Origin: a virus
DNA: 64,000 nt
IMG/VR virus record: IMGVR_UViG_3300045685_000034
Coordinates: 4,507-68,506 of that record
Direction: 5' to 3' (one strand)
Below the pieces are notes generated by a model that made no database searches, had not been told where the DNA came from, and was given only the letters and a program-made list of their open reading frames with translations. The translations under genes and the position numbers were made by a program. Shown one piece after another: positions 39,972 to 62,208 of the stretch. Every line of letters starts with the position of its first letter. The first letter of the stretch is position 1.

Positions 39972-40043
39972 GTACCCTTAGTTCAATTGGTAGAATACTC
40001 CGGTTCATATCGGAAGATGCGGGTTCGAGGCCTGCGGGGTACA
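39972..40043 (+). pseudogene. degenerate tRNA-CAT paralog (6-nt anticodon loop)
   Basis: GTACCCT/GGGGTAC acceptor, GTTC/GAAT D-stem, TCCGG-TTCATA-TCGGA, GCGGG-TTCGAGG-CCTGC. Confidence 0.7.
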
Positions 40044-45072: not shown

Positions 45073-46221
45073 TTACAAATTATCAATCAACTTCCCCATC
45101 ATATCCGCCGTTTCTTTTTCTTCTTCTTTCAGTACGTCACTGTACACATCTAAAGTAATATTTATATTTTTATGTCCTAAGCGATTAGATACATATTTGA
45201 TATTTGCTCCAGCTTCGATCAAGAAAGTCGCATGAGTATGCCTAAGTCCGTGCACTGTTATATTTGGAACCTTTGCTTCATCACATAACAATCTAAACAT
45301 ATACGTGATTTTAGATTGTTGAATTGGTAGATTTCGAGAACTCAAAATAAAGTAGTCTTCGTCTTTTAGAATTTTTCCTTTTTTAAAAAGCCGTTCTTTT
45401 TCATAAGACTTATATTTTTTGACTAATGCGAGTAGTGAATCATCAAAGTAAACTTTACGAATACTTGTTTTTGTTTTTGGTTTATTCTCACCATAATCTC
45501 CTCGTGTGGAATTGATGTCAAAATATTTCTCAGCTAATTCAATATCTCTCCATCGAAGCCCCATCAGTTCACCTTTTCTCATTCCAGTTTTTAATAGCGT
45601 GAAAAAAATAATTTGGGTTCGGATATTTTTGCCCTCTAAAACCGCTATAAATTTTTGTAGTTCGTCTTTTGTAAACGAACGAACACTATTGCTTGAATCG
45701 AATTTGAAGCCTGTGAGGGTGTTGCTAGGAAGTATTTGATTATTCACAGCAGCATTGATCATTCTCATAACAATTTTATGCCATGTTTGGATAGTAGAAT
45801 CTTTATATTTATTTTCCTGCCGCAGTTTATCAATGAAATTCCGCTTATAAGTGATCTTGTTTAATGATGATAGCTTTTGATTACCAATTAATGGGGAAAT
45901 ATGGTATTTGATAGCAGATTCAATATTTTGTTTCGTCGAGATACTCCAAGCGTCTTGTGCGTAAGGTATCCAAACCTTAATCCATTCATCTATGGTGATG
46001 TTCTTATTTTCAATAAAAGAAGTATTCTGTGTTTCCAACTCATATTGAATTTTAAGAAGAGCTTTATTTGCAGCTCGATCACTATCAAAACCACGCTTAC
46101 TGGCTTCTTTCCGCTGTCCCAGTGAATTGTAAAAGGGAAATCGGTATCCCCAAAAATCACCATTTTTATTTGAATAAGAAAAAACATGCTTGTATTTTTT
46201 TGACCAATTCAGTTTCGCCAT
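45073..46221 (-). CDS. int: tyrosine integrase of prophage 2
   Basis: N-terminal arm-binding segment; TGMRKGE, HGLRHTHAT, LGH, VYS. Confidence 0.96.
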   Translation of the reverse strand: MAKLNWSKKYKHVFSYSNKNGDFWGYRFPFYNSLGQRKEASKRGFDSDRAANKALLKIQYELETQNTSFIENKNITIDEWIKVWIPYAQDAWSISTKQNIESAIKYHISPLIGNQKLSSLNKITYKRNFIDKLRQENKYKDSTIQTWHKIVMRMINAAVNNQILPSNTLTGFKFDSSNSVRSFTKDELQKFIAVLEGKNIRTQIIFFTLLKTGMRKGELMGLRWRDIELAEKYFDINSTRGDYGENKPKTKTSIRKVYFDDSLLALVKKYKSYEKERLFKKGKILKDEDYFILSSRNLPIQQSKITYMFRLLCDEAKVPNITVHGLRHTHATFLIEAGANIKYVSNRLGHKNINITLDVYSDVLKEEEKETADMMGKLIDNL

Positions 46222-46330
46222 ATTTCCACGTCCTTTTACTTGTGTTAAAATAGGCACTGTTGATAAGCCTATAGATTGGTTCTGTTAACATGACACGATC
46301 TGACTCTTAGCGGGGACGGGTCGTGTTTTG

Positions 46331-49398: not shown

Positions 49399-49638
49399 AT
49401 GAATGAATTTAATAACGCAATAAGTGTGAGCGGTTTAGGCGATGACATTAACTCAGCTATGATGCAAAACGCACAGCGACAAGTCATCCAAGAAATTATG
49501 AACGCAGCACAAAACGGTAGAACTGAATGCACTACACAATCAAAAGGAGCAACACCATCTTTTCTAGCACAACTTGAAGAAGAGGGTGTATTCAATATTC
49601 CTAAAGGAAACAGTGTCACCTTATTTTGGGAATGGTAA
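49399..49638 (+). CDS. hypothetical protein
   Basis: RBS AAGGAG. Confidence 0.7.
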   Translation: MNEFNNAISVSGLGDDINSAMMQNAQRQVIQEIMNAAQNGRTECTTQSKGATPSFLAQLEEEGVFNIPKGNSVTLFWEW

Positions 49639-49661
49639 ACAAAACGAAGGGTGGAAGAAAG

Positions 49662-50333
49662 ATGACGGAAAAAACTTTCAACGAAAAAGTTGTATCTGTA
49701 CAAAGTAGTTTGAAGGCTCCTAAGGGTCAATTTAATAAGTTCGGTAAATATAACTATCGGTCCTTAGAGGATATTAACGAAGCAGTAAAACCATTATTGG
49801 CTAAAGAAGGGCTGAAACTAACGATTAGCGATGAGCTTGTTTTAATTGGAGATCGAATCTACGTGAAATCCACTGCACATCTCTCAGATGGCAGTGAGTA
49901 CATCAATGTTAGTGGTTACGCAAGAGAGGCAGAATCTAAGAAGGGAATGGACGAGTCGCAAATTACAGGGACAGCTTCATCATATGCCAGAAAATACGCG
50001 CTCAACGGTCTGTTTCTTATTGACGATACCAAAGATGCTGATACAAATGAAAATCAAAATGAACGAAATGAACGGTCTAAAACTCAAAGCAACAAACGTC
50101 CTCCGCAAGAAAGCAAAGGAACAAAATCAGCTGATAAGACTTCTAAAGAATTATCGAACGCTCAGAGAGATATAGCGATCCAAAAAATGACGGAATTTTC
50201 AAATGTGCAATCAATGACTATCCAACAGGCAACAGAAAAACTGTTTCCATATCTGAAAATCAACTCAAAATTATCAGACCTTACGTCAGATGATTACGGC
50301 GTATTAATGAATTACTTAAATCAACATTTATAA
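49662..50333 (+). CDS. ERF-family single-strand annealing protein
   Basis: LKAPKGQFNKFGKYNYRSLEDI, GTASSYARKYAL. Confidence 0.92.
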   Translation: MTEKTFNEKVVSVQSSLKAPKGQFNKFGKYNYRSLEDINEAVKPLLAKEGLKLTISDELVLIGDRIYVKSTAHLSDGSEYINVSGYAREAESKKGMDESQITGTASSYARKYALNGLFLIDDTKDADTNENQNERNERSKTQSNKRPPQESKGTKSADKTSKELSNAQRDIAIQKMTEFSNVQSMTIQQATEKLFPYLKINSKLSDLTSDDYGVLMNYLNQHL

Positions 50334-57114: not shown

Positions 57115-57115
57115 G

Positions 57116-57139
57116 TCAAGTCACGGAGGAAACAGCCAT
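57116..57139 (+). other. 9-6-9 site J (spacer GGAGGA), degenerate right arm
   Basis: TCAAGTCAC-GGAGGA-AACAGCCAT. Confidence 0.55.
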
Positions 57140-57161
57140 AAATGGAGCGATCAAATAGGTT

Positions 57162-57440
57162 TTGAAGGGAGTGATTATTTTGTTTCTCAAGGGTGCAAAT
57201 ATTGACCGAGAAGAATTATTTCGAATCCTAGTTGAAGACTATGAAAATGTAAAAAGCACATATACAAACACGATGCTAGGGGAGCCAAGAGAGATCACTT
57301 ATGCAAAGGGAAAACTCGATGGCGCATGTATGGCTTTAGGAATTGAATATGAAATCATTGAGGAAAAAATAGTATTCAAAACCTTCATGAGCGATAAGAA
57401 AGTTTTTGAATTACCGTTTAAACCAGAAAAACCGTGGTAA
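57162..57440 (+). CDS. hypothetical cassette gene
   Basis: Lies between sites J and K. Confidence 0.7.
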   Translation: MKGVIILFLKGANIDREELFRILVEDYENVKSTYTNTMLGEPREITYAKGKLDGACMALGIEYEIIEEKIVFKTFMSDKKVFELPFKPEKPW

Positions 57441-57446
57441 TTTTTG

Positions 57447-57470
57447 TCAGGTAACGGAGGATATCAACAA
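57447..57470 (+). other. 9-6-9 site K (spacer GGAGGA)
   Basis: TCAGGTAAC-GGAGGA-TATCAACAA. Confidence 0.68.
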
Positions 57471-57485
57471 GGAAGGAGTTCAATA

Positions 57486-57764
57486 ATGATTGAACGCAGA
57501 ACCAAAGGTTTAAAAGTCGGAGACACTATGTATTCATATGATGGCATGTGGTTTCCGTTTGAATCAATAAAAGCGTATTTAGAATACGATCCAAGTGCCA
57601 CGTCAGTTTTGAAAGGCAAGATAAAGTGTTTCGAAGTGGAAGGAATCTCGGATGAAGATACAGCCTATTTTGATAGGATCGAAGATTATCAAGGTAGAAG
57701 ACCGCATTTCATTGTTGATTCTGTCGAATTGGTGAAAGTTAAAAATGAACTAAAGGTCAAGTAA
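57486..57764 (+). CDS. hypothetical cassette gene
   Basis: Lies between K and L; stop in left arm of L. Confidence 0.7.
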   Translation: MIERRTKGLKVGDTMYSYDGMWFPFESIKAYLEYDPSATSVLKGKIKCFEVEGISDEDTAYFDRIEDYQGRRPHFIVDSVELVKVKNELKVK

Positions 57765-57780
57765 CGGAGGATATTACGGA
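57757..57780 (+). other. 9-6-9 site L (spacer GGAGGA)
   Basis: TCAAGTAAC-GGAGGA-TATTACGGA. Confidence 0.7.
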
Positions 57781-58467: not shown

Positions 58468-58631
58468 TCCAATATCAGATAAAATACATTGCTCATAACG
58501 ATCGTATAAAGACATGTTATCTGCACGCAAATAGTCGCGAAGAGGTAGAAGAGTCAGTCCGAGTATTGCAAGGGTGTAAGCAATTGATATCTATTCGTGT
58601 CTGGCCAAAAGAACAGGAGGACGGCGAATGA
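58464..58631 (+). CDS. small hypothetical protein
   Basis: ATGA-coupled MIQYQIKYIAH..EDGE. Confidence 0.6.
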   Translation: MIQYQIKYIAHNDRIKTCYLHANSREEVEESVRVLQGCKQLISIRVWPKEQEDGE

Positions 58632-58834
58632 TTAGAGTTTGCGAAGCTTTGCTAGGTCAACCTGAAAAAGTTTCCTTTGTTTCAGAAGAAGAAGCCCTAC
58701 AATTGCGTTTGAAATATCAGTTCAAGATGCTTTTAGAAGGCATATATATGAATGATGTTGATGGACGAGATCAGAAGTTTCAGTTAGTAAAAAACGGCAC
58801 TTTGCTGGGCTACTTTTCAATGGAGAAATGGTAA
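58628..58834 (+). CDS. hypothetical protein
   Basis: ATGA-coupled ORF. Confidence 0.65.
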   Translation: MIRVCEALLGQPEKVSFVSEEEALQLRLKYQFKMLLEGIYMNDVDGRDQKFQLVKNGTLLGYFSMEKW

Positions 58835-58838
58835 TAGC

Positions 58839-58862
58839 TCAGCTAACCACGCCTATAAAGTA
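58839..58862 (+). other. 9-6-9 site N (spacer CACGCC)
   Basis: TCAGCTAAC-CACGCC-TATAAAGTA. Confidence 0.7.
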
Positions 58863-58906
58863 AATTCCCTCAATCAAAATACCTGATTGAGGGAGAGAAA
58901 ACTTTA

Positions 58907-59128
58907 TTAATTTTTCTTACGAATGAGTATTTTGTCAAGTGTGTAGGTCTGTTCTTTTCCTTTGACGAAAAATTCTTCAGGGAATACATCTCCTAACAAT
59001 CGAAAAAGTTCATAGTCATTGTCAGTGAAATGAGAGAAGAATTCAGGAGCATTATTCTTTTTAAGTGTATCTCCACCAATTTTGTCTAATGTCTCATAGA
59101 CAAACATTCTGAGTTCAAAAATAGTCAT
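58907..59128 (-). CDS. hypothetical protein
   Basis: RBS AAGGAGGTG; downstream hairpin CCCTCAATCA..TGATTGAGGG. Confidence 0.65.
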   Translation of the reverse strand: MTIFELRMFVYETLDKIGGDTLKKNNAPEFFSHFTDNDYELFRLLGDVFPEEFFVKGKEQTYTLDKILIRKKN

Positions 59129-59243
59129 ATTAGCACCTCCTTAAAAAATCTTTTTTATTTATAAATACACTATAACAGCAAAGAATACCTCTAAACGCTC
59201 TAAATTATTTTTGAGAAATTAGTTTGATAAAGGGGGAAAGTCA

Positions 59244-60011
59244 GTGAGAGCATTGTCTCTTTTTTCGGGAATCGGCGGATTAGATTTAGCAGCGGAATGG
59301 GCCGGGATCGAAACTGTTGCCTTCTGCGAGAACGCCGATTTTCCCAAAAGAGTATTAAAGAAACAATGGCCAACAGTGCCACAGTTTGAAGATGTAAAAC
59401 AGTTAAATATTAAGACGCTAGAAAGTAGTGGGATAGATGCAAGAACAATTGGAATTATTCACGGAGGATTTCCTTGCCAGCCTTTCTCACTCGCAGGAAA
59501 AGGTAAAGCCGAGAACGACGATCGCTATTTATGGCACGAATTCGCAAGACTCGTTAAGGAAATTCGACCTCGTTGGGTTGTCGGCGAGAATGTACCAGGA
59601 ATTCTTAACCGCGGACTCGAAACAACCGTTAGTGACTTGGAAAAAGAAGGCTACGAAGTTTGGGTTTTCAGTGTTGCAGCTAGTGATATCGGGGCAATCC
59701 ACAAAAGACAAAGGTACTTTATCGTTGCTTGCAACACCCACAGCCAGTCAATCATACAAGAGGATTCGCCCACTTGCACCTTCCGAAGCGAACGGCAAGC
59801 ATGGCAAAGTTCTTCCTGGAAGTATTGGCGAGAATTTCGAGAGCTACATCGGAAAGTACCCGAACCCGGCATTTGTCGAGTGGATGATGGGGTATCCAGA
59901 GAATTGGACAAAAATAGATTGATTGCTTTAGGAAATGCGGTCCAACCGCAACAAGTTTATCCGATCTTTAAAACAATCATGGAAATTGAAAGGATGATGA
60001 GAGCTGAATAA
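59244..60011 (+). CDS. dcm: C5 DNA cytosine methyltransferase, alpha-type subunit
   Basis: LFSGIGG (I), GGFPCQPFS (IV), GENVPG (VI), HKRQRYFIVA (VIII), LGNAV (X). Confidence 0.92.
   Translation: MRALSLFSGIGGLDLAAEWAGIETVAFCENADFPKRVLKKQWPTVPQFEDVKQLNIKTLESSGIDARTIGIIHGGFPCQPFSLAGKGKAENDDRYLWHEFARLVKEIRPRWVVGENVPGILNRGLETTVSDLEKEGYEVWVFSVAASDIGAIHKRQRYFIVACNTHSQSIIQEDSPTCTFRSERQAWQSSSWKYWREFRELHRKVPEPGICRVDDGVSRELDKNRLIALGNAVQPQQVYPIFKTIMEIERMMRAE
59437..59922 (+). CDS. nested alternative-frame ORF, probable beta subunit of the C5-MTase
   Basis: 161 codons wholly inside dcm; ends YPNPAFVEWMMGYPENWT (motif IX-like). Confidence 0.75.
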   Translation: MQEQLELFTEDFLASLSHSQEKVKPRTTIAIYGTNSQDSLRKFDLVGLSARMYQEFLTADSKQPLVTWKKKATKFGFSVLQLVISGQSTKDKGTLSLLATPTASQSYKRIRPLAPSEANGKHGKVLPGSIGENFESYIGKYPNPAFVEWMMGYPENWTKID

Positions 60012-60216
60012 GCTAGAGGAAATCCTCAATAATCCTGACAAATACGATCTGTCGCCAGAAACAATAGACGGACTCAGATCACTACTGAGAGCTTTTGATA
60101 CTAATCCATTCTTTCCCATCGGTAGATATGACTATGCTGAGGAGCATTTGAACCGAATGAAACGGTTAGGACAGATCGAAAGTGATTTGATGCGAAGTAT
60201 TCTAAATGATTTTTAA
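60004..60216 (+). CDS. hypothetical protein (CTG start?)
   Basis: Open frame (L)NKLEEILNNPDKYDL..NDF. Confidence 0.5.
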   Translation: MNKLEEILNNPDKYDLSPETIDGLRSLLRAFDTNPFFPIGRYDYAEEHLNRMKRLGQIESDLMRSILNDF

Positions 60217-60230
60217 AAGGAGGAACTGAC

Positions 60231-60683
60231 TTGTCAAAAATATTAGATGCCTGTTGCGGCAGCCGGATGTTCTGGTTTGATAAGGAAAATCCAGACGTAA
60301 CATTCATGGATTGCCGGCAGTATTACGAAGAACTACCAACAGGCCACGTGGTCAATGTTGATCCAGATATTGTTGCTGACTTTCGAGATATGCCGTTTGA
60401 AGATGACGTTTTTGACATGGTTGTTTTTGATCCGCCGCATCTTATTAACGTTGGTGAAAGCTCTTGGTTGGCAAAGAAATACGGTCGACTAGATGAACTA
60501 TGGCCAGAAGACATAAGACAAGGCTTTGCAGAATGTATGCGAGTTCTGCGGCCGGCTGGAACACTAATTTTTAAATGGAACGAGGATCAGGTTCCACTTT
60601 CTGAGGTGTTAGAGGCTATTGGTCAGCAGCCATTATTTGGAAATAAACGAAGCAAAACACATTGGCTGGTGTTTATGAAATAG
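60231..60683 (+). CDS. small SAM-dependent methyltransferase (probable N6A/N4C DNA MTase)
   Basis: ILDACCGSRMFW, VVFDPPHL, GTLIFKWNE. Confidence 0.88.
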   Translation: MSKILDACCGSRMFWFDKENPDVTFMDCRQYYEELPTGHVVNVDPDIVADFRDMPFEDDVFDMVVFDPPHLINVGESSWLAKKYGRLDELWPEDIRQGFAECMRVLRPAGTLIFKWNEDQVPLSEVLEAIGQQPLFGNKRSKTHWLVFMK

Positions 60684-60684
60684 T

Positions 60685-60708
60685 TCCGATAACCACGCCT
60701 ACAGAAGA
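60685..60708 (+). other. 9-6-9 site O (spacer CACGCC)
   Basis: TCCGATAAC-CACGCC-TACAGAAGA. Confidence 0.7.
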
Positions 60709-60721
60709 AAGGATGAAGGAA

Positions 60722-60943
60722 ATGAATAATATTGATGAAAAGAAAAGTGCATATCTGAAAAAATTTGATCGAGAAAATGATTTATCTGAATTGGGCTGGG
60801 GTGAGTCAAAAAGATACGGTGAAGAAATAGTTGAATTGTTGCAAGAAAAAGAAGGCCTAACATATGAGGAAGCATATGCAAGCCTTCAGTACGCATATAA
60901 CTTATTGAAATACAAATCTAATTTTGTGGAACTTCGAAAATAG
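60722..60943 (+). CDS. hypothetical protein
   Basis: ORF with RBS after site O. Confidence 0.7.
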   Translation: MNNIDEKKSAYLKKFDRENDLSELGWGESKRYGEEIVELLQEKEGLTYEEAYASLQYAYNLLKYKSNFVELRK

Positions 60944-61424
60944 AAACAAACTTGACTGATTTAAAAGAATTTAAATCTACAACTGAAATCTTTGGTAAAT
61001 TGGGCATATTTACAAAGGTTACATCATACAAATTGTGTGGTAATTTATTTTCTTCTTGAAGGTCAGTTACTAAAGAGACCATGTAGGAATTCAATAATTC
61101 TAGATTGTTTTCACTGTTAATAAACATAAAAAACTCTTTAACTAATTCAGTTCCAAATGGCTGACGGATTTTTTTGAACAAATCGATTTGTTTAGTCTCA
61201 TCTGATTGAAGAGAGGTACCCATGTATTCAGGTTCTATTACCCGAGTAAACGGGCTGAATGTTGGGATACAAACATAATCATTGTCAAGGCGAACGAAAT
61301 CGCCATACATGAAAGCATCATCACATTTTATAAGAATTTTTAGTGTTGAATTCTTATAAGGTTCTTTTGTAGAGACTGTTCTTTTGAGAATGAAGTCCAT
61401 GGTTTGTAAATCAGAAATTTTCAT
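60918..61424 (-). CDS. hypothetical moron-like protein
   Basis: Own promoter and leader at 61433-61479. Confidence 0.7.
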   Translation of the reverse strand: MKISDLQTMDFILKRTVSTKEPYKNSTLKILIKCDDAFMYGDFVRLDNDYVCIPTFSPFTRVIEPEYMGTSLQSDETKQIDLFKKIRQPFGTELVKEFFMFINSENNLELLNSYMVSLVTDLQEENKLPHNLYDVTFVNMPNLPKISVVDLNSFKSVKFVSIFEVPQN

Positions 61425-61432
61425 TTTTTCAC

Positions 61433-61479
61433 CTCCTTATCAGTATTTCAGTGGACCACTCACTGATAAGGAGATTATA
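61433..61479 (-). promoter_or_regulatory. TATAAT promoter plus SD-containing leader hairpin
   Basis: CTCCTTATCAGT..ACTGATAAGGAG; matches 812-858. Confidence 0.7.
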
Positions 61480-61514
61480 TCAAATAAAAATAGGTCGAAA
61501 CGCTTTAAATTATT

Positions 61515-61538
61515 TCGACTAACTCAGCCTATCAAGTA
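61515..61538 (+). other. 9-6-9 site P (spacer TCAGCC)
   Basis: TCGACTAAC-TCAGCC-TATCAAGTA. Confidence 0.7.
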
Positions 61539-61554
61539 AGAAAAGAGGTATGAA

Positions 61555-62208
61555 ATGAAACAAGAATTATTAAAATAGATTTACGAAAATAAGGTTGGTA
61601 GACCAAGCGTTTTTGGTCTTGGGACCGTTGAAACAGTCTACATGGTTGATCTTATCGAAATGATTAATGAACTTGAAGAACCACAGGTAACCAACGAGCA
61701 AGCGTGGAATAAGATCGCTGAGACATATCCTGAAACTGCTCAGAACTTGAGGATAACTTTAGATCATGCGGTGTACGGTCATGAGGCTGAACCGCAGAAA
61801 GTCAAAGTGCCAGCGGTTGTGGCTAAGTGGATTTCAAAATGTCGGGAATTAAAGTGGATCTTACCTGACTTACTTGCACCAGAAGCTTTTGAATCAAGCT
61901 TTGCTCGTGATACTGAAGAATGGTTGCGACAAGACAAACAAAATTACGATATTCTAGCTCGTGCTTGGCTAAGCGGCTACGAGGTCGAGGAAGAGCCGAA
62001 GTATCAAGTCAAGTTGAAATTTGGTAGACAGTATCTATCTAAAAATGCTGATGGAAATATGCTTGATTTTTACTCATGCATGGTATTTCCTCCAAGCTTC
62101 TCAAAAAAAGAACTTGAATCAATTGAGGATGGAGCATTTTACAAAGCCGATGGCGACAAAGAATGGATAAATCCAATTATTGAACTTGTACCAGTCGAGA
62201 AAGTGTAG
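61555..62208 (+). pseudogene. DUF1642-family gene with in-frame TAG at codon 8 (ORF resumes, ATG 61642)
   Basis: RBS+ATG 61555, TAG 61576-61578, same frame continues; PQKVKVPAVVA, ARAWLSGYEVEE. Confidence 0.7.

Follow-up and report, generated by a model that had tools for sequence, protein, structure and literature searches.

Predicted methylase genes of an Enterococcus-type prophage lie in a variable slot of an ordered intergenic linker series at which related phages probably exchange gene units

Short, conserved intergenic sequences between non-homologous genes are described in lambdoid phages as boundary or linker sequences, in line with the Susskind-Botstein modular theory (as outlined through refs 21 and 22 of PMC3029335). 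End points of homology coincide with them, and general or phage-encoded recombination is presumed to act there. Integron cassettes, which depend on IntI, attI and attC, are small promoterless genes that are bounded by sites and arranged in a one-directional array, where the same gene can occupy different slots. In T4-type phages, PeSL (promoter-early stem-loop) cassettes, which consist of a promoter and a stem-loop, mediate gene shuffling, and these repeated short regulatory elements between accessory genes are the recombination points of hyperplastic regions. Two described groups of enzymes are also relevant. Temperate Firmicutes phages carry orphan methyltransferases (PHROG 363 and 954; PADLOC oMTase) that are small, have no nuclease partner, lie between replication and late-regulator genes and are presumed to counter restriction, and M.EcoHK31I is a natural two-chain C5-methyltransferase (PMC2836561, PMC3404938).

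The block of methylase genes analysed here is located in the early operon of a temperate, Enterococcus-type prophage, within a 64-kb stretch of DNA that we refer to as the window. The linkers around it are, like the lambdoid ones, short, conserved and intergenic, and coincide with homology end points; they differ from the lambdoid linkers in that at least six of them follow one another in a set order, share one frame (stop, 7-nt core, TAT, ribosome-binding site), carry cores specific to their position and are maintained in many Enterococcus-type phages. They share with PeSLs their position between accessory genes, but have neither a fold beyond chance nor a promoter consensus. As in integrons, small promoterless genes are bounded by sites in one direction and the same gene is found in different slots, yet no IntI-type or universal recombinase was found, the sites are not imperfect palindromes, the order of cores is fixed rather than free, and no circular intermediates are known. 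Compared with the Firmicutes orphan methyltransferases, which they resemble in size, position and lack of a nuclease partner, the enzymes are nothing unusual, and only their packaging between linkers is notable. The methylases are ordinary orphan cargo, and the linker system is the part of interest. Comparison of the 8-kb region with deposited phage genomes gave a single 56-bp match and no close relatives. The features of the region are the following.

58628..58834, plus strand: U6, a 68-aa ORF upstream of the module
58835..58862, plus strand: left D linker, with U6-type left arm TAGCTCAGCTAA, core CCACGCC (58847-58853) and right arm TATAAAGTA
58866..58894: terminator-like hairpin with a 13-bp stem, from a terminator scan, where U6 and the reverse 73-aa gene converge
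58907..59128, minus strand: reverse 73-aa ORF, moron-like
59129..59243: intergenic region between divergent genes; part of it recurs at 61411-61515
59244..60011, plus strand: predicted C5-methyltransferase (C5-MTase) alpha chain, 255 aa, with motifs I-VIII and X
59437..59922, plus strand: nested ORF of the predicted beta chain, 161 aa, in the +1 frame inside 59244-60011, with a motif IX-like EWMMGYPENWT at its end
59985..59995: join of the C5-MTase unit to the 71-aa/DPPH unit, linker lost
60004..60216, plus strand: 71-aa ORF, with no ATG, GTG or TTG start and with CTG where the related locus L075 has ATG
60231..60683, plus strand: predicted DPPH-motif DNA methyltransferase of orphan type, 150 aa, phrog_954 at 4e-82
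60681..60712, plus strand: right D linker, TAG-TTCCGATAA, core CCACGCC (60693-60699), TAC, then the ribosome-binding site AAAGGA
60722..60943, plus strand: 73-aa gene, phrog_17280, downstream of the right D site
60918..61424, minus strand: reverse 168-aa ORF
61510..61549, plus strand: type E linker, TAA (61520-61522), core CTCAGCC (61523-61529), TATCAAGTAAG and a ribosome-binding site; it closes the D-to-E slot
61642..62208, plus strand: DUF1642 gene, PF07852 at 1e-18, the usual 3' neighbour of the E linker

An earlier note on this DNA had described directly repeated sites at 58835 and 60681 around a C5-MTase, its nested ORF, a DPPH-type methyltransferase and two small genes. The sites are real and begin at these positions, and the block between the two D linkers contains the genes described, namely the reverse 73-aa gene, the C5-MTase with the nested ORF, the 71-aa ORF and the DPPH methyltransferase. 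Both sites lie just 3' of a stop codon, and the left 21-nt site (58835-58855, TAGCTCAGCTAACCACGCCTA) is identical to the right one (60681-60701, TAGTTCCGATAACCACGCCTA) at 18 of 21 positions. The exact 12-mer TAACCACGCCTA occurs only at 58844 and 60690 in the whole window; the similarity lengthens to 25 of 32 positions, and a third, weaker copy with the core CTCAGCC is present at 61509-61540. Simulated windows contained about 22 exact 12-mer pairs within 3 kb each, so that the 12-mer repeat alone is not significant. A repeat by chance was ruled out: the 25/32 extension is rare (0.05 per simulated window), and relatives carry the motif as well. The word CACGCC by itself is not enriched, with 8 occurrences observed against 10 expected.

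The first reading of the two sites needs correcting in that they are not specific to the module but belong to a series of intergenic linkers shared throughout the family. The linkers are about 20-35 bp long; each ends the preceding gene with its stop codon or codons, has a 7-nt core specific to its position and provides the next gene with a ribosome-binding site, roughly in the frame (T/A)AG-TTCCGG-TAA, 7-nt core, TAT-(C/T)AAG and ribosome-binding site. Often the last codons of the preceding gene itself, ending in TAA, stand in place of the left arm. Across about 25 related loci the linker types occur in the fixed order A, B, C, D, E, F, with a D-to-E spacing that ranges from 455 to 2676 nt, and several other phages sampled alongside this one have contigs that share the segment 61520-61557. 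TTCC..TAA and TTATGTA resemble the arms of Firmicutes dif sites; a dif-like Xer site was dropped as a candidate, as the spacing does not fit and TTATGTA is present in some variants only. The position-specific cores remain constant beside unrelated genes, which speaks against passive descent as a full account of the series.

In about 18 viral loci the D motif is located 3' of the stop codons of unrelated genes. The flanks of D were found in reassorted combinations, of 11 types upstream and 14 types downstream, and the distinct contexts amount to 21 for D and 24 for E. Homology end points, counted here although they are not independent events, fell within 20 nt of a linker in 64 of 371 cases against 1.6% expected by position, an excess of about 11-fold, and an end point was nearby at 68% of the linker-bearing ORF ends and at 27% of the other ORF ends. 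In the window, homology to L178 begins at 58844, inside the left D linker, and homology to L007, L008, L206 and L207 begins at 60681-60706, in the right D linker. These comparisons of sequence support D sites as places where gene units would be exchanged among related phages.

Relatives of U6, 87-99% identical, were found by protein search, with none in a search of viral contigs; an E-type linker and a DUF1642 gene come immediately after them, except in L174, where a D linker and other genes do. In L165-L172 the U6 left arm is joined to an E core. The E linker with its DUF1642 neighbourhood is likewise present in L165-L176. The hairpin that follows the left D linker has a fold of -23.4 kcal/mol (z = -4.7) and is conserved in L178, where an 81% identical copy of the reverse 73-aa gene occupies the same position, while the reverse 168-aa gene has an identical copy in L006/L073. 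A sigma-70 scan of the divergent intergenic region (59129..59243) gave nothing above chance. Neither the two reverse genes nor the 71-aa ORF matched Pfam, PHROG, NCBIfam or PADLOC, and the 73-aa gene at 60722..60943, whose PHROG is of unknown function, had no match in Pfam, NCBIfam or PADLOC.

The 1.85-kb block had been regarded as a single module, but the whole block was never seen as a unit, and each methylase unit was found separately. L177 carries the C5-MTase unit alone between D and E, and L178 carries D, the C5-MTase and E together with the terminator and the reverse 73-aa gene; the alpha-chain copies in both loci are 94-96% identical and end at the E linker. The unit of the 71-aa ORF and the DPPH methyltransferase is bounded by a D site on both sides in L073, and by D and E in L075. 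By tblastn the 71-aa ORF was found only in L006/L073 and L075, always directly 5' of the DPPH methyltransferase, and the 3' end of the latter gene is joined to four different cores. Homology to L177, L178 and L179 stops at 59991, homology to L006/L073 starts at 59990, and the three junctions were aligned. On this evidence the block is composite: two or more units meet at 59990, and the linker between them would have been lost. This join is not within a linker, which indicates that illegitimate recombination also contributes.

The alpha chain of the C5-MTase matches PF00145 (3e-38, residues 1-173), phrog_363 (8e-73) and TIGR00675, and carries motifs I (FSGIGG), IV (PCQ), VI (ENV), VIII (QRxR) and X (GNAV, residues 230-233). 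The nested ORF is open in the window gene and in 25 of 25 other, non-identical homologues examined; tblastn showed its homologues to be full-length, with the same nesting in phages of Bacillus, Paenibacillus and Lactobacillus. A broken or frameshifted C5-MTase was rejected: neither frame is interrupted in any homologue examined, both are conserved, and a C5-MTase whose second chain lies wholly inside the first gene in another frame has precedent (PMC2836561). By its predicted layout, which is the basis of the likeness to M.EcoHK31I, the nested ORF would encode a conserved beta subunit of that type, and the C5 enzyme would be made as two chains, the second from the nested +1 frame. A model of the alpha-beta complex scored 0.82 against 0.07 for the best control, a score that may mirror the likeness to solved single-chain C5-methyltransferases; the mark applied is reached by 58 of 80 solved complexes and by 2 of 110 mismatched pairs. 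The model runs had at least 73% of contacts in common, with a partner pLDDT of at least 59. In comparison with M.EcoHK31I, the copy in the prophage is phage-borne and orphan, and motifs VIII and X of its alpha chain are separated by no more than about 55 residues of poor conservation, which suggests that the target-recognition part probably also resides in beta.

The DPPH methyltransferase has more than 500 relatives among viral contigs and matches MTase_II (8e-68) and oMTase (1e-58) in PADLOC, and no solved close relative was found. The small N6-adenine enzyme beside the C5-MTase of phage Lily, considered as possible kin, is unrelated. No nuclease family was found in the small ORFs adjoining the DPPH methyltransferase (Pfam, PHROG, NCBIfam and PADLOC), and both predicted methylases are orphan, without a nuclease partner. 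Judged from their families, their most likely role is to shield the phage genome against restriction by the host.

We regard it as somewhat probable that the methylase block is accessory cargo in a variable D-to-E slot, subject to linker-bounded gene exchange that would proceed by short-homology recombination. Related phages would swap the content between linker D (CCACGCC) and linker E (CTCAGCC), most likely when they co-infect a cell or meet a resident prophage, with the short homology of the linkers as substrate. Against this explanation stand the length of the conserved tract, about 13-22 nt at many junctions and so short for homologous recombination, the constancy of the cores beside unrelated genes, the join at 59990 outside any linker, and the 83% of homology end points that lie away from the six catalogued linker types. 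The genes of the prophage include one for an ERF family protein (49626-50330, 2e-37) in addition to SSB, RusA and an HNHc_6 nuclease, and Erf-type recombinases work on short and diverged homology (PMC3945230); we infer that the phage's own ERF annealing protein may help recombination at the linkers. Two separately mobile methylase units, one of the reverse 73-aa gene with the two-chain C5-methylase and the other of the 71-aa ORF with the DPPH methylase, would have been stacked before an older unit (the 73-aa gene and the reverse 168-aa gene), and the linker between them would have been lost at 59990. The two D cores would stand in direct repeat because of this stacking. Recombination between the two D copies may remove the block, as a rare accident and not as a regulated switch.

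The earlier note had proposed an excisable anti-restriction cassette with switchable methylation; in an active form, it would turn phage methylation on and off within a population. Direct repeats with an identical 12-mer on the two sides of the block, and a cargo of two methyltransferases, agree with such a cassette, but the block is composite and never found as a unit, the arms match at 18 of 21 positions only, and a recombinase is not evident. The predicted D-D deletion junction, or empty-site allele, in which U6, D and the 73-aa gene would be directly adjacent, was absent from the viral, genome and metagenome contig collections; a looser junction pattern returned contexts with another upstream gene, or the L073 phage itself, and nothing else. 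The phage is present in four public runs, which are ant metagenomes apart from one; no D-D joint was seen in their assembled contigs, which would hide rare variants. The single joint reported there, 58632 to 61515, was rejected, since it contains unknown letters in between and comes from a co-resident phage of greater abundance that has short segments in common with this one. With no precise-deletion allele in relatives, in the three collections or in the contigs of the four runs, the switch fails on the available data by the earlier note's own criterion, and we consider active switching highly improbable.

Two other readings bear on the linkers themselves. They may be sites of a dedicated recombinase, integron-like, with D-cargo-D representing an inserted circular cassette and the block being excisable. 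The layout of constant flank, variable core and constant flank with a conserved core order agrees with such sites, as do flanks that switch immediately on either side of the core. The arrangement D-cargo-D is found in the window and in L073, and a single D lies directly before the same 73-aa gene, the one at 60722..60943 in the window, in L206 and L207, with no methylase and another upstream gene. A D site is also located directly 5' of a 60-aa ORF and a 316-aa tyrosine recombinase in L018, L024 and L045, and prophage 1 of the record has an early-region XerD-like gene. A count of PF00589 matches per record revealed no dedicated recombinase that co-occurs with all D sites, however: G002, G005 and G014, which are complete and have D sites, each have one match, the integrase; a second, early-region copy is present in some records only; and in prophage 2 no second recombinase was found in the part in view. 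The left arm is often the upstream gene's last codons, and thus not a conserved binding arm, and the arms, as read from the sequences, are not inverted repeats; by inspection, TTCCGGTAA and the reverse complement of TATTAAGTAGG match at few positions only. Strand exchange within a 6-7-nt core would recombine sites with matching cores, but the U6 left arm is paired with a D or an E core, which indicates joins between sites of differing cores. Neither deletion nor circle junctions were found in the collections searched or in the contigs of the four runs, and we hold a dedicated recombinase to be unlikely. Alternatively, the linkers may be chiefly expression signals (tandem stops, a spacer, a ribosome-binding site and perhaps a regulator site), with the D copies having no role in recombination and end points accumulating at linkers because selection removes recombinants with broken genes. 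In favour of such signals, the operon is tightly packed and each linker carries both a stop codon and a Shine-Dalgarno sequence, the full D linker has stops in all three frames, and the majority of homology end points lie away from linkers. Yet a generic stop and ribosome-binding site leaves the fixed core order beside unrelated genes unexplained, what comes after the left D site is a terminator and then a gene on the other strand rather than a gene led by a ribosome-binding site, RNA folding at the linkers gave z values of 0.1 to 1.0, none beyond chance, and a comparison with Rfam gave no family. A chiefly expressive role is also an improbable explanation. The further idea that the linkers of the form TAA, 7-nt core and TAT are recombination sites of an undescribed phage cassette system that captures and releases cargo is quite unlikely in our judgement. 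If it were true, the enzyme responsible for strand exchange in the core would be host Xer, the integrase or a tyrosine recombinase of the early region that acts in trans, and matching cores, for example the two D copies, could capture and release accessory genes of the methylase type.

Under exchange by short-homology recombination at the linkers, which we prefer, this phage group would be an unusually clean natural case of the linkers that modular theory predicts and that are rarely found, with ordered, position-specific linkers at which anti-restriction and other accessory genes would be reassorted. The C5-MTase would add one more phage case of the nested two-chain layout, which is usually mis-annotated as a single gene or a frameshift. 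In a tractable host, the linker series may make it possible to distinguish mosaicism by short-homology recombination from illegitimate joining followed by selection.

The source of the window, a 69-kb IMG/VR virus entry with a G+C content of ~38%, appears to comprise a tandem pair of temperate-phage genomes. Late and lysis genes of the first phage extend up to ~38.8 kb in the window, and the second phage opens with reverse-strand ORFs. Its early operon, on the forward strand, occupies the remainder of the window from 49.6 kb onward. The record appears to hold two different phages side by side (window 1-39000 and 40000-64000) rather than a single 69-kb phage, and a tRNA-Met gene and an odd tRNA-like call divide them. 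The methylase module was located within the second phage's early operon, downstream of genes for an ERF annealing protein, a DnaB-type helicase, RusA, SSB and a MazG-like protein. The features are as follows.

39161, tRNA-Met gene, after the late and lysis genes of the first phage
39972-40043, second, odd tRNA-like call
45073-46257 (-), integrase-family gene of the second phage, PF00589 match
58628-58834 (+), 68-aa gene upstream of the module (U6)
58835-58862 (+), left D site (linker with core CCACGCC)
58907-59128 (-), reverse 73-aa gene
60681-60712 (+), right D site
60722-60943 (+), 73-aa gene right of the module, phrog_17280
61509-61540, weaker third copy of the repeat
61510-61549 (+), E linker (core CTCAGCC)

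An earlier note had described a double-methylase module between direct repeats and proposed that it would be an excisable anti-restriction cassette giving switchable phage methylation. Both repeat sites were found where it had placed them, and ORF and family searches confirmed the genes between them: first the reverse 73-aa gene, then the C5-methyltransferase gene and its nested +1 ORF, and last the 71-aa ORF ahead of a DPPH methyltransferase of 150 aa. The two D sites are identical at 18 of 21 positions and share an exact 12-mer, TAACCACGCCTA, confined to these sites within the window; a 12-mer repeated within 3 kb is frequent by chance, and the extension of the similarity to 25 of 32 positions was expected 0.05 times per simulated window. 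Each copy begins at, or immediately after, a stop codon. A strong hairpin adjoins the reverse 73-aa gene on the left-site side. The reverse 73-aa and reverse 168-aa genes resemble each other at 74-79% over their starts and the DNA upstream of them (59115-59210 versus 61411-61515), which suggests a divergent control region common to reverse 'moron' genes and travelling with them. The 71-aa ORF at 60004, which travels with the DPPH methyltransferase, shows CTG in the window and in the related locus L073 at the position of ATG in L075; either a rare start codon is used or translation was lost.

The frame-0 product of the C5-methyltransferase gene contains motifs I-VIII and X. Full-length homologues of the nested ORF with identical geometry were found in Bacillus, Paenibacillus and Lactobacillus phages, including phage Lily, where it is annotated as 'internal gene', and the frame was open in 25 of 25 other, non-identical homologues, down to ~27% identity. 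This layout is that of M.EcoHK31I, in which the beta chain lies within the alpha gene in a different frame and bears motif IX (PMC2836561; PMC3404938). The predicted alpha-beta complex scored 0.82 (best control, 0.07); of 80 solved complexes 58 attained that mark, as did 2 of 110 mismatched pairs. Three runs had at least 73% of contacts in common, with a partner pLDDT of at least 59. The model places the beta motif IX segment against alpha motifs I and X. The modelling supports alpha-beta binding without showing it, and the agreement may stem from resemblance to solved single-chain enzymes.

The D sites are members of a linker family. An exact-pattern scan of viral contigs yielded 69 matches, by rough estimate about the chance number for a collection of this size; ~18 of them (36-39% G+C) have the common extended context TAG-TTCCG(G)-TAA-CCACGCC-(T/A)AT, usually continued by (C/T)AAG(G/T)AGG and a start codon. 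Other junctions of the window showed the same frame with different 7-nt cores, the set being GTGGGGC, CGGAGGA (three times), ACGACCA (the CGACCAC core read one base offset), CCACGCC (twice), CTCAGCC and CCGAAGC. The core order A<B<C<D<E<F was constant over ~25 related loci, among which D-to-E spacing ranged from 455 to 2676 nt and only the window and L073 had a duplicated D. Clustering of 400 nt on each side of D separated the upstream flanks into 11 types and the downstream flanks into 14, combined in many ways, with one upstream gene paired with various downstream genes and vice versa. The catalogue comprised 21 distinct D and 24 distinct E contexts; the left arm often amounted to no more than the closing codons of the preceding gene, its TAA included, and the invariant elements were TAA, the core, TAT and a ribosome-binding site. 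Inter-locus homology ended within 20 nt of a linker at 64 of 371 end points, which are not independent events, versus 1.6% expected by position; 83% lay away from linkers.

At 57115-57775, three successive B-type linkers (CGGAGGA) each bracket one small gene, and this core includes a Shine-Dalgarno-like GGAGGA, possibly making linker and ribosome-binding site hard to separate. Same-frame sites with other cores occur in the first prophage at 9845 and 12144, such as TTCCAGTAA-CCAATAA-TAT and TTCAGCTAA-CCGACCC-AAT. The E linker of the window is followed at 61550-61577 only by a mini-ORF of 7 or 8 codons (MKQELLK*), which matches the N-terminus (MNKQE...) of the DUF1642 genes 3' of this linker in relatives. 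The DUF1642 gene of the window restarts at 61642 (61642-62208), its original start seemingly removed by a small indel.

The methylase module is composite. Homology to L177, L178 and L179 spans the C5-methyltransferase and ends at 59991, in L178 additionally taking in the D core, the hairpin and the reverse 73-aa gene. In all three this gene terminates in an E linker, and in L177 a D linker lies directly 5' of it, so that there the D-to-E interval holds this one gene as a unit. Homology to L006/L073 begins at 59990 and extends as far as the E linker (61542). That phage has the 71-aa ORF and the DPPH methyltransferase between two D linkers, and L075 has them between D and E. The 3' end of the DPPH methyltransferase abuts four different cores in relatives. 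Comparison of the three junction sequences showed that at the join near 59990 the window is without ~32 nt of linker, with microhomology of just 2 nt.

Relatives of U6 (87-99% identity) have an E linker and DUF1642 immediately downstream, or in L174 a D linker and other genes. The left site of the window consists of U6's own left arm and the D core, which implies that the join occurred within the linker, between sites of differing cores. L206 and L207 have a single D linker after another upstream gene and before the 73-aa gene of phrog_17280, and their homology to the window begins exactly at 60681. These contexts show that units come and go at D. The cassette idea holds at the evolutionary scale, but an excisable switch is unsupported. 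The allele predicted from D-D deletion in this phage was absent from viral, genome and metagenome contigs, and no join across the two D sites occurred among the assembled contigs of four phage-holding runs, in which rare variants are invisible. A regulated on/off methylation switch was without support. Other phages in same-sample contigs share short segments with the window (58567-58631, 60190-60295 and 61520-61557); in the ant-metagenome runs with this phage, contigs of more abundant phages match just these and 61431-61488 and then diverge, so the assembly graph branches there.

The linkers could, on a minority reading, be a site-specific recombination system, and some relatives have a second, early-region tyrosine recombinase directly 3' of a D site. 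In L018 (11572-13882; also L024 and L045), a 60-aa ORF comes first after the D linker, then a 316-aa tyrosine recombinase (PF00589) additional to the integrase, and then an HTH and an N6_Mtase-like protein. A dedicated recombinase was unsupported, since several complete D-site records have the integrase as their only tyrosine recombinase. RNA folding of the linkers was not beyond chance, and they matched no Rfam family. The phage encodes ERF, SSB and RusA, and Erf-type proteins are far better than RecA at recombining short, diverged sequences (PMC3945230). Together these points favour short-homology exchange, by which units would be swapped at linkers, with some illegitimate joining probably contributing, as at 59990. 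The methylase cargo is ordinary; the interest lies in the linker series.
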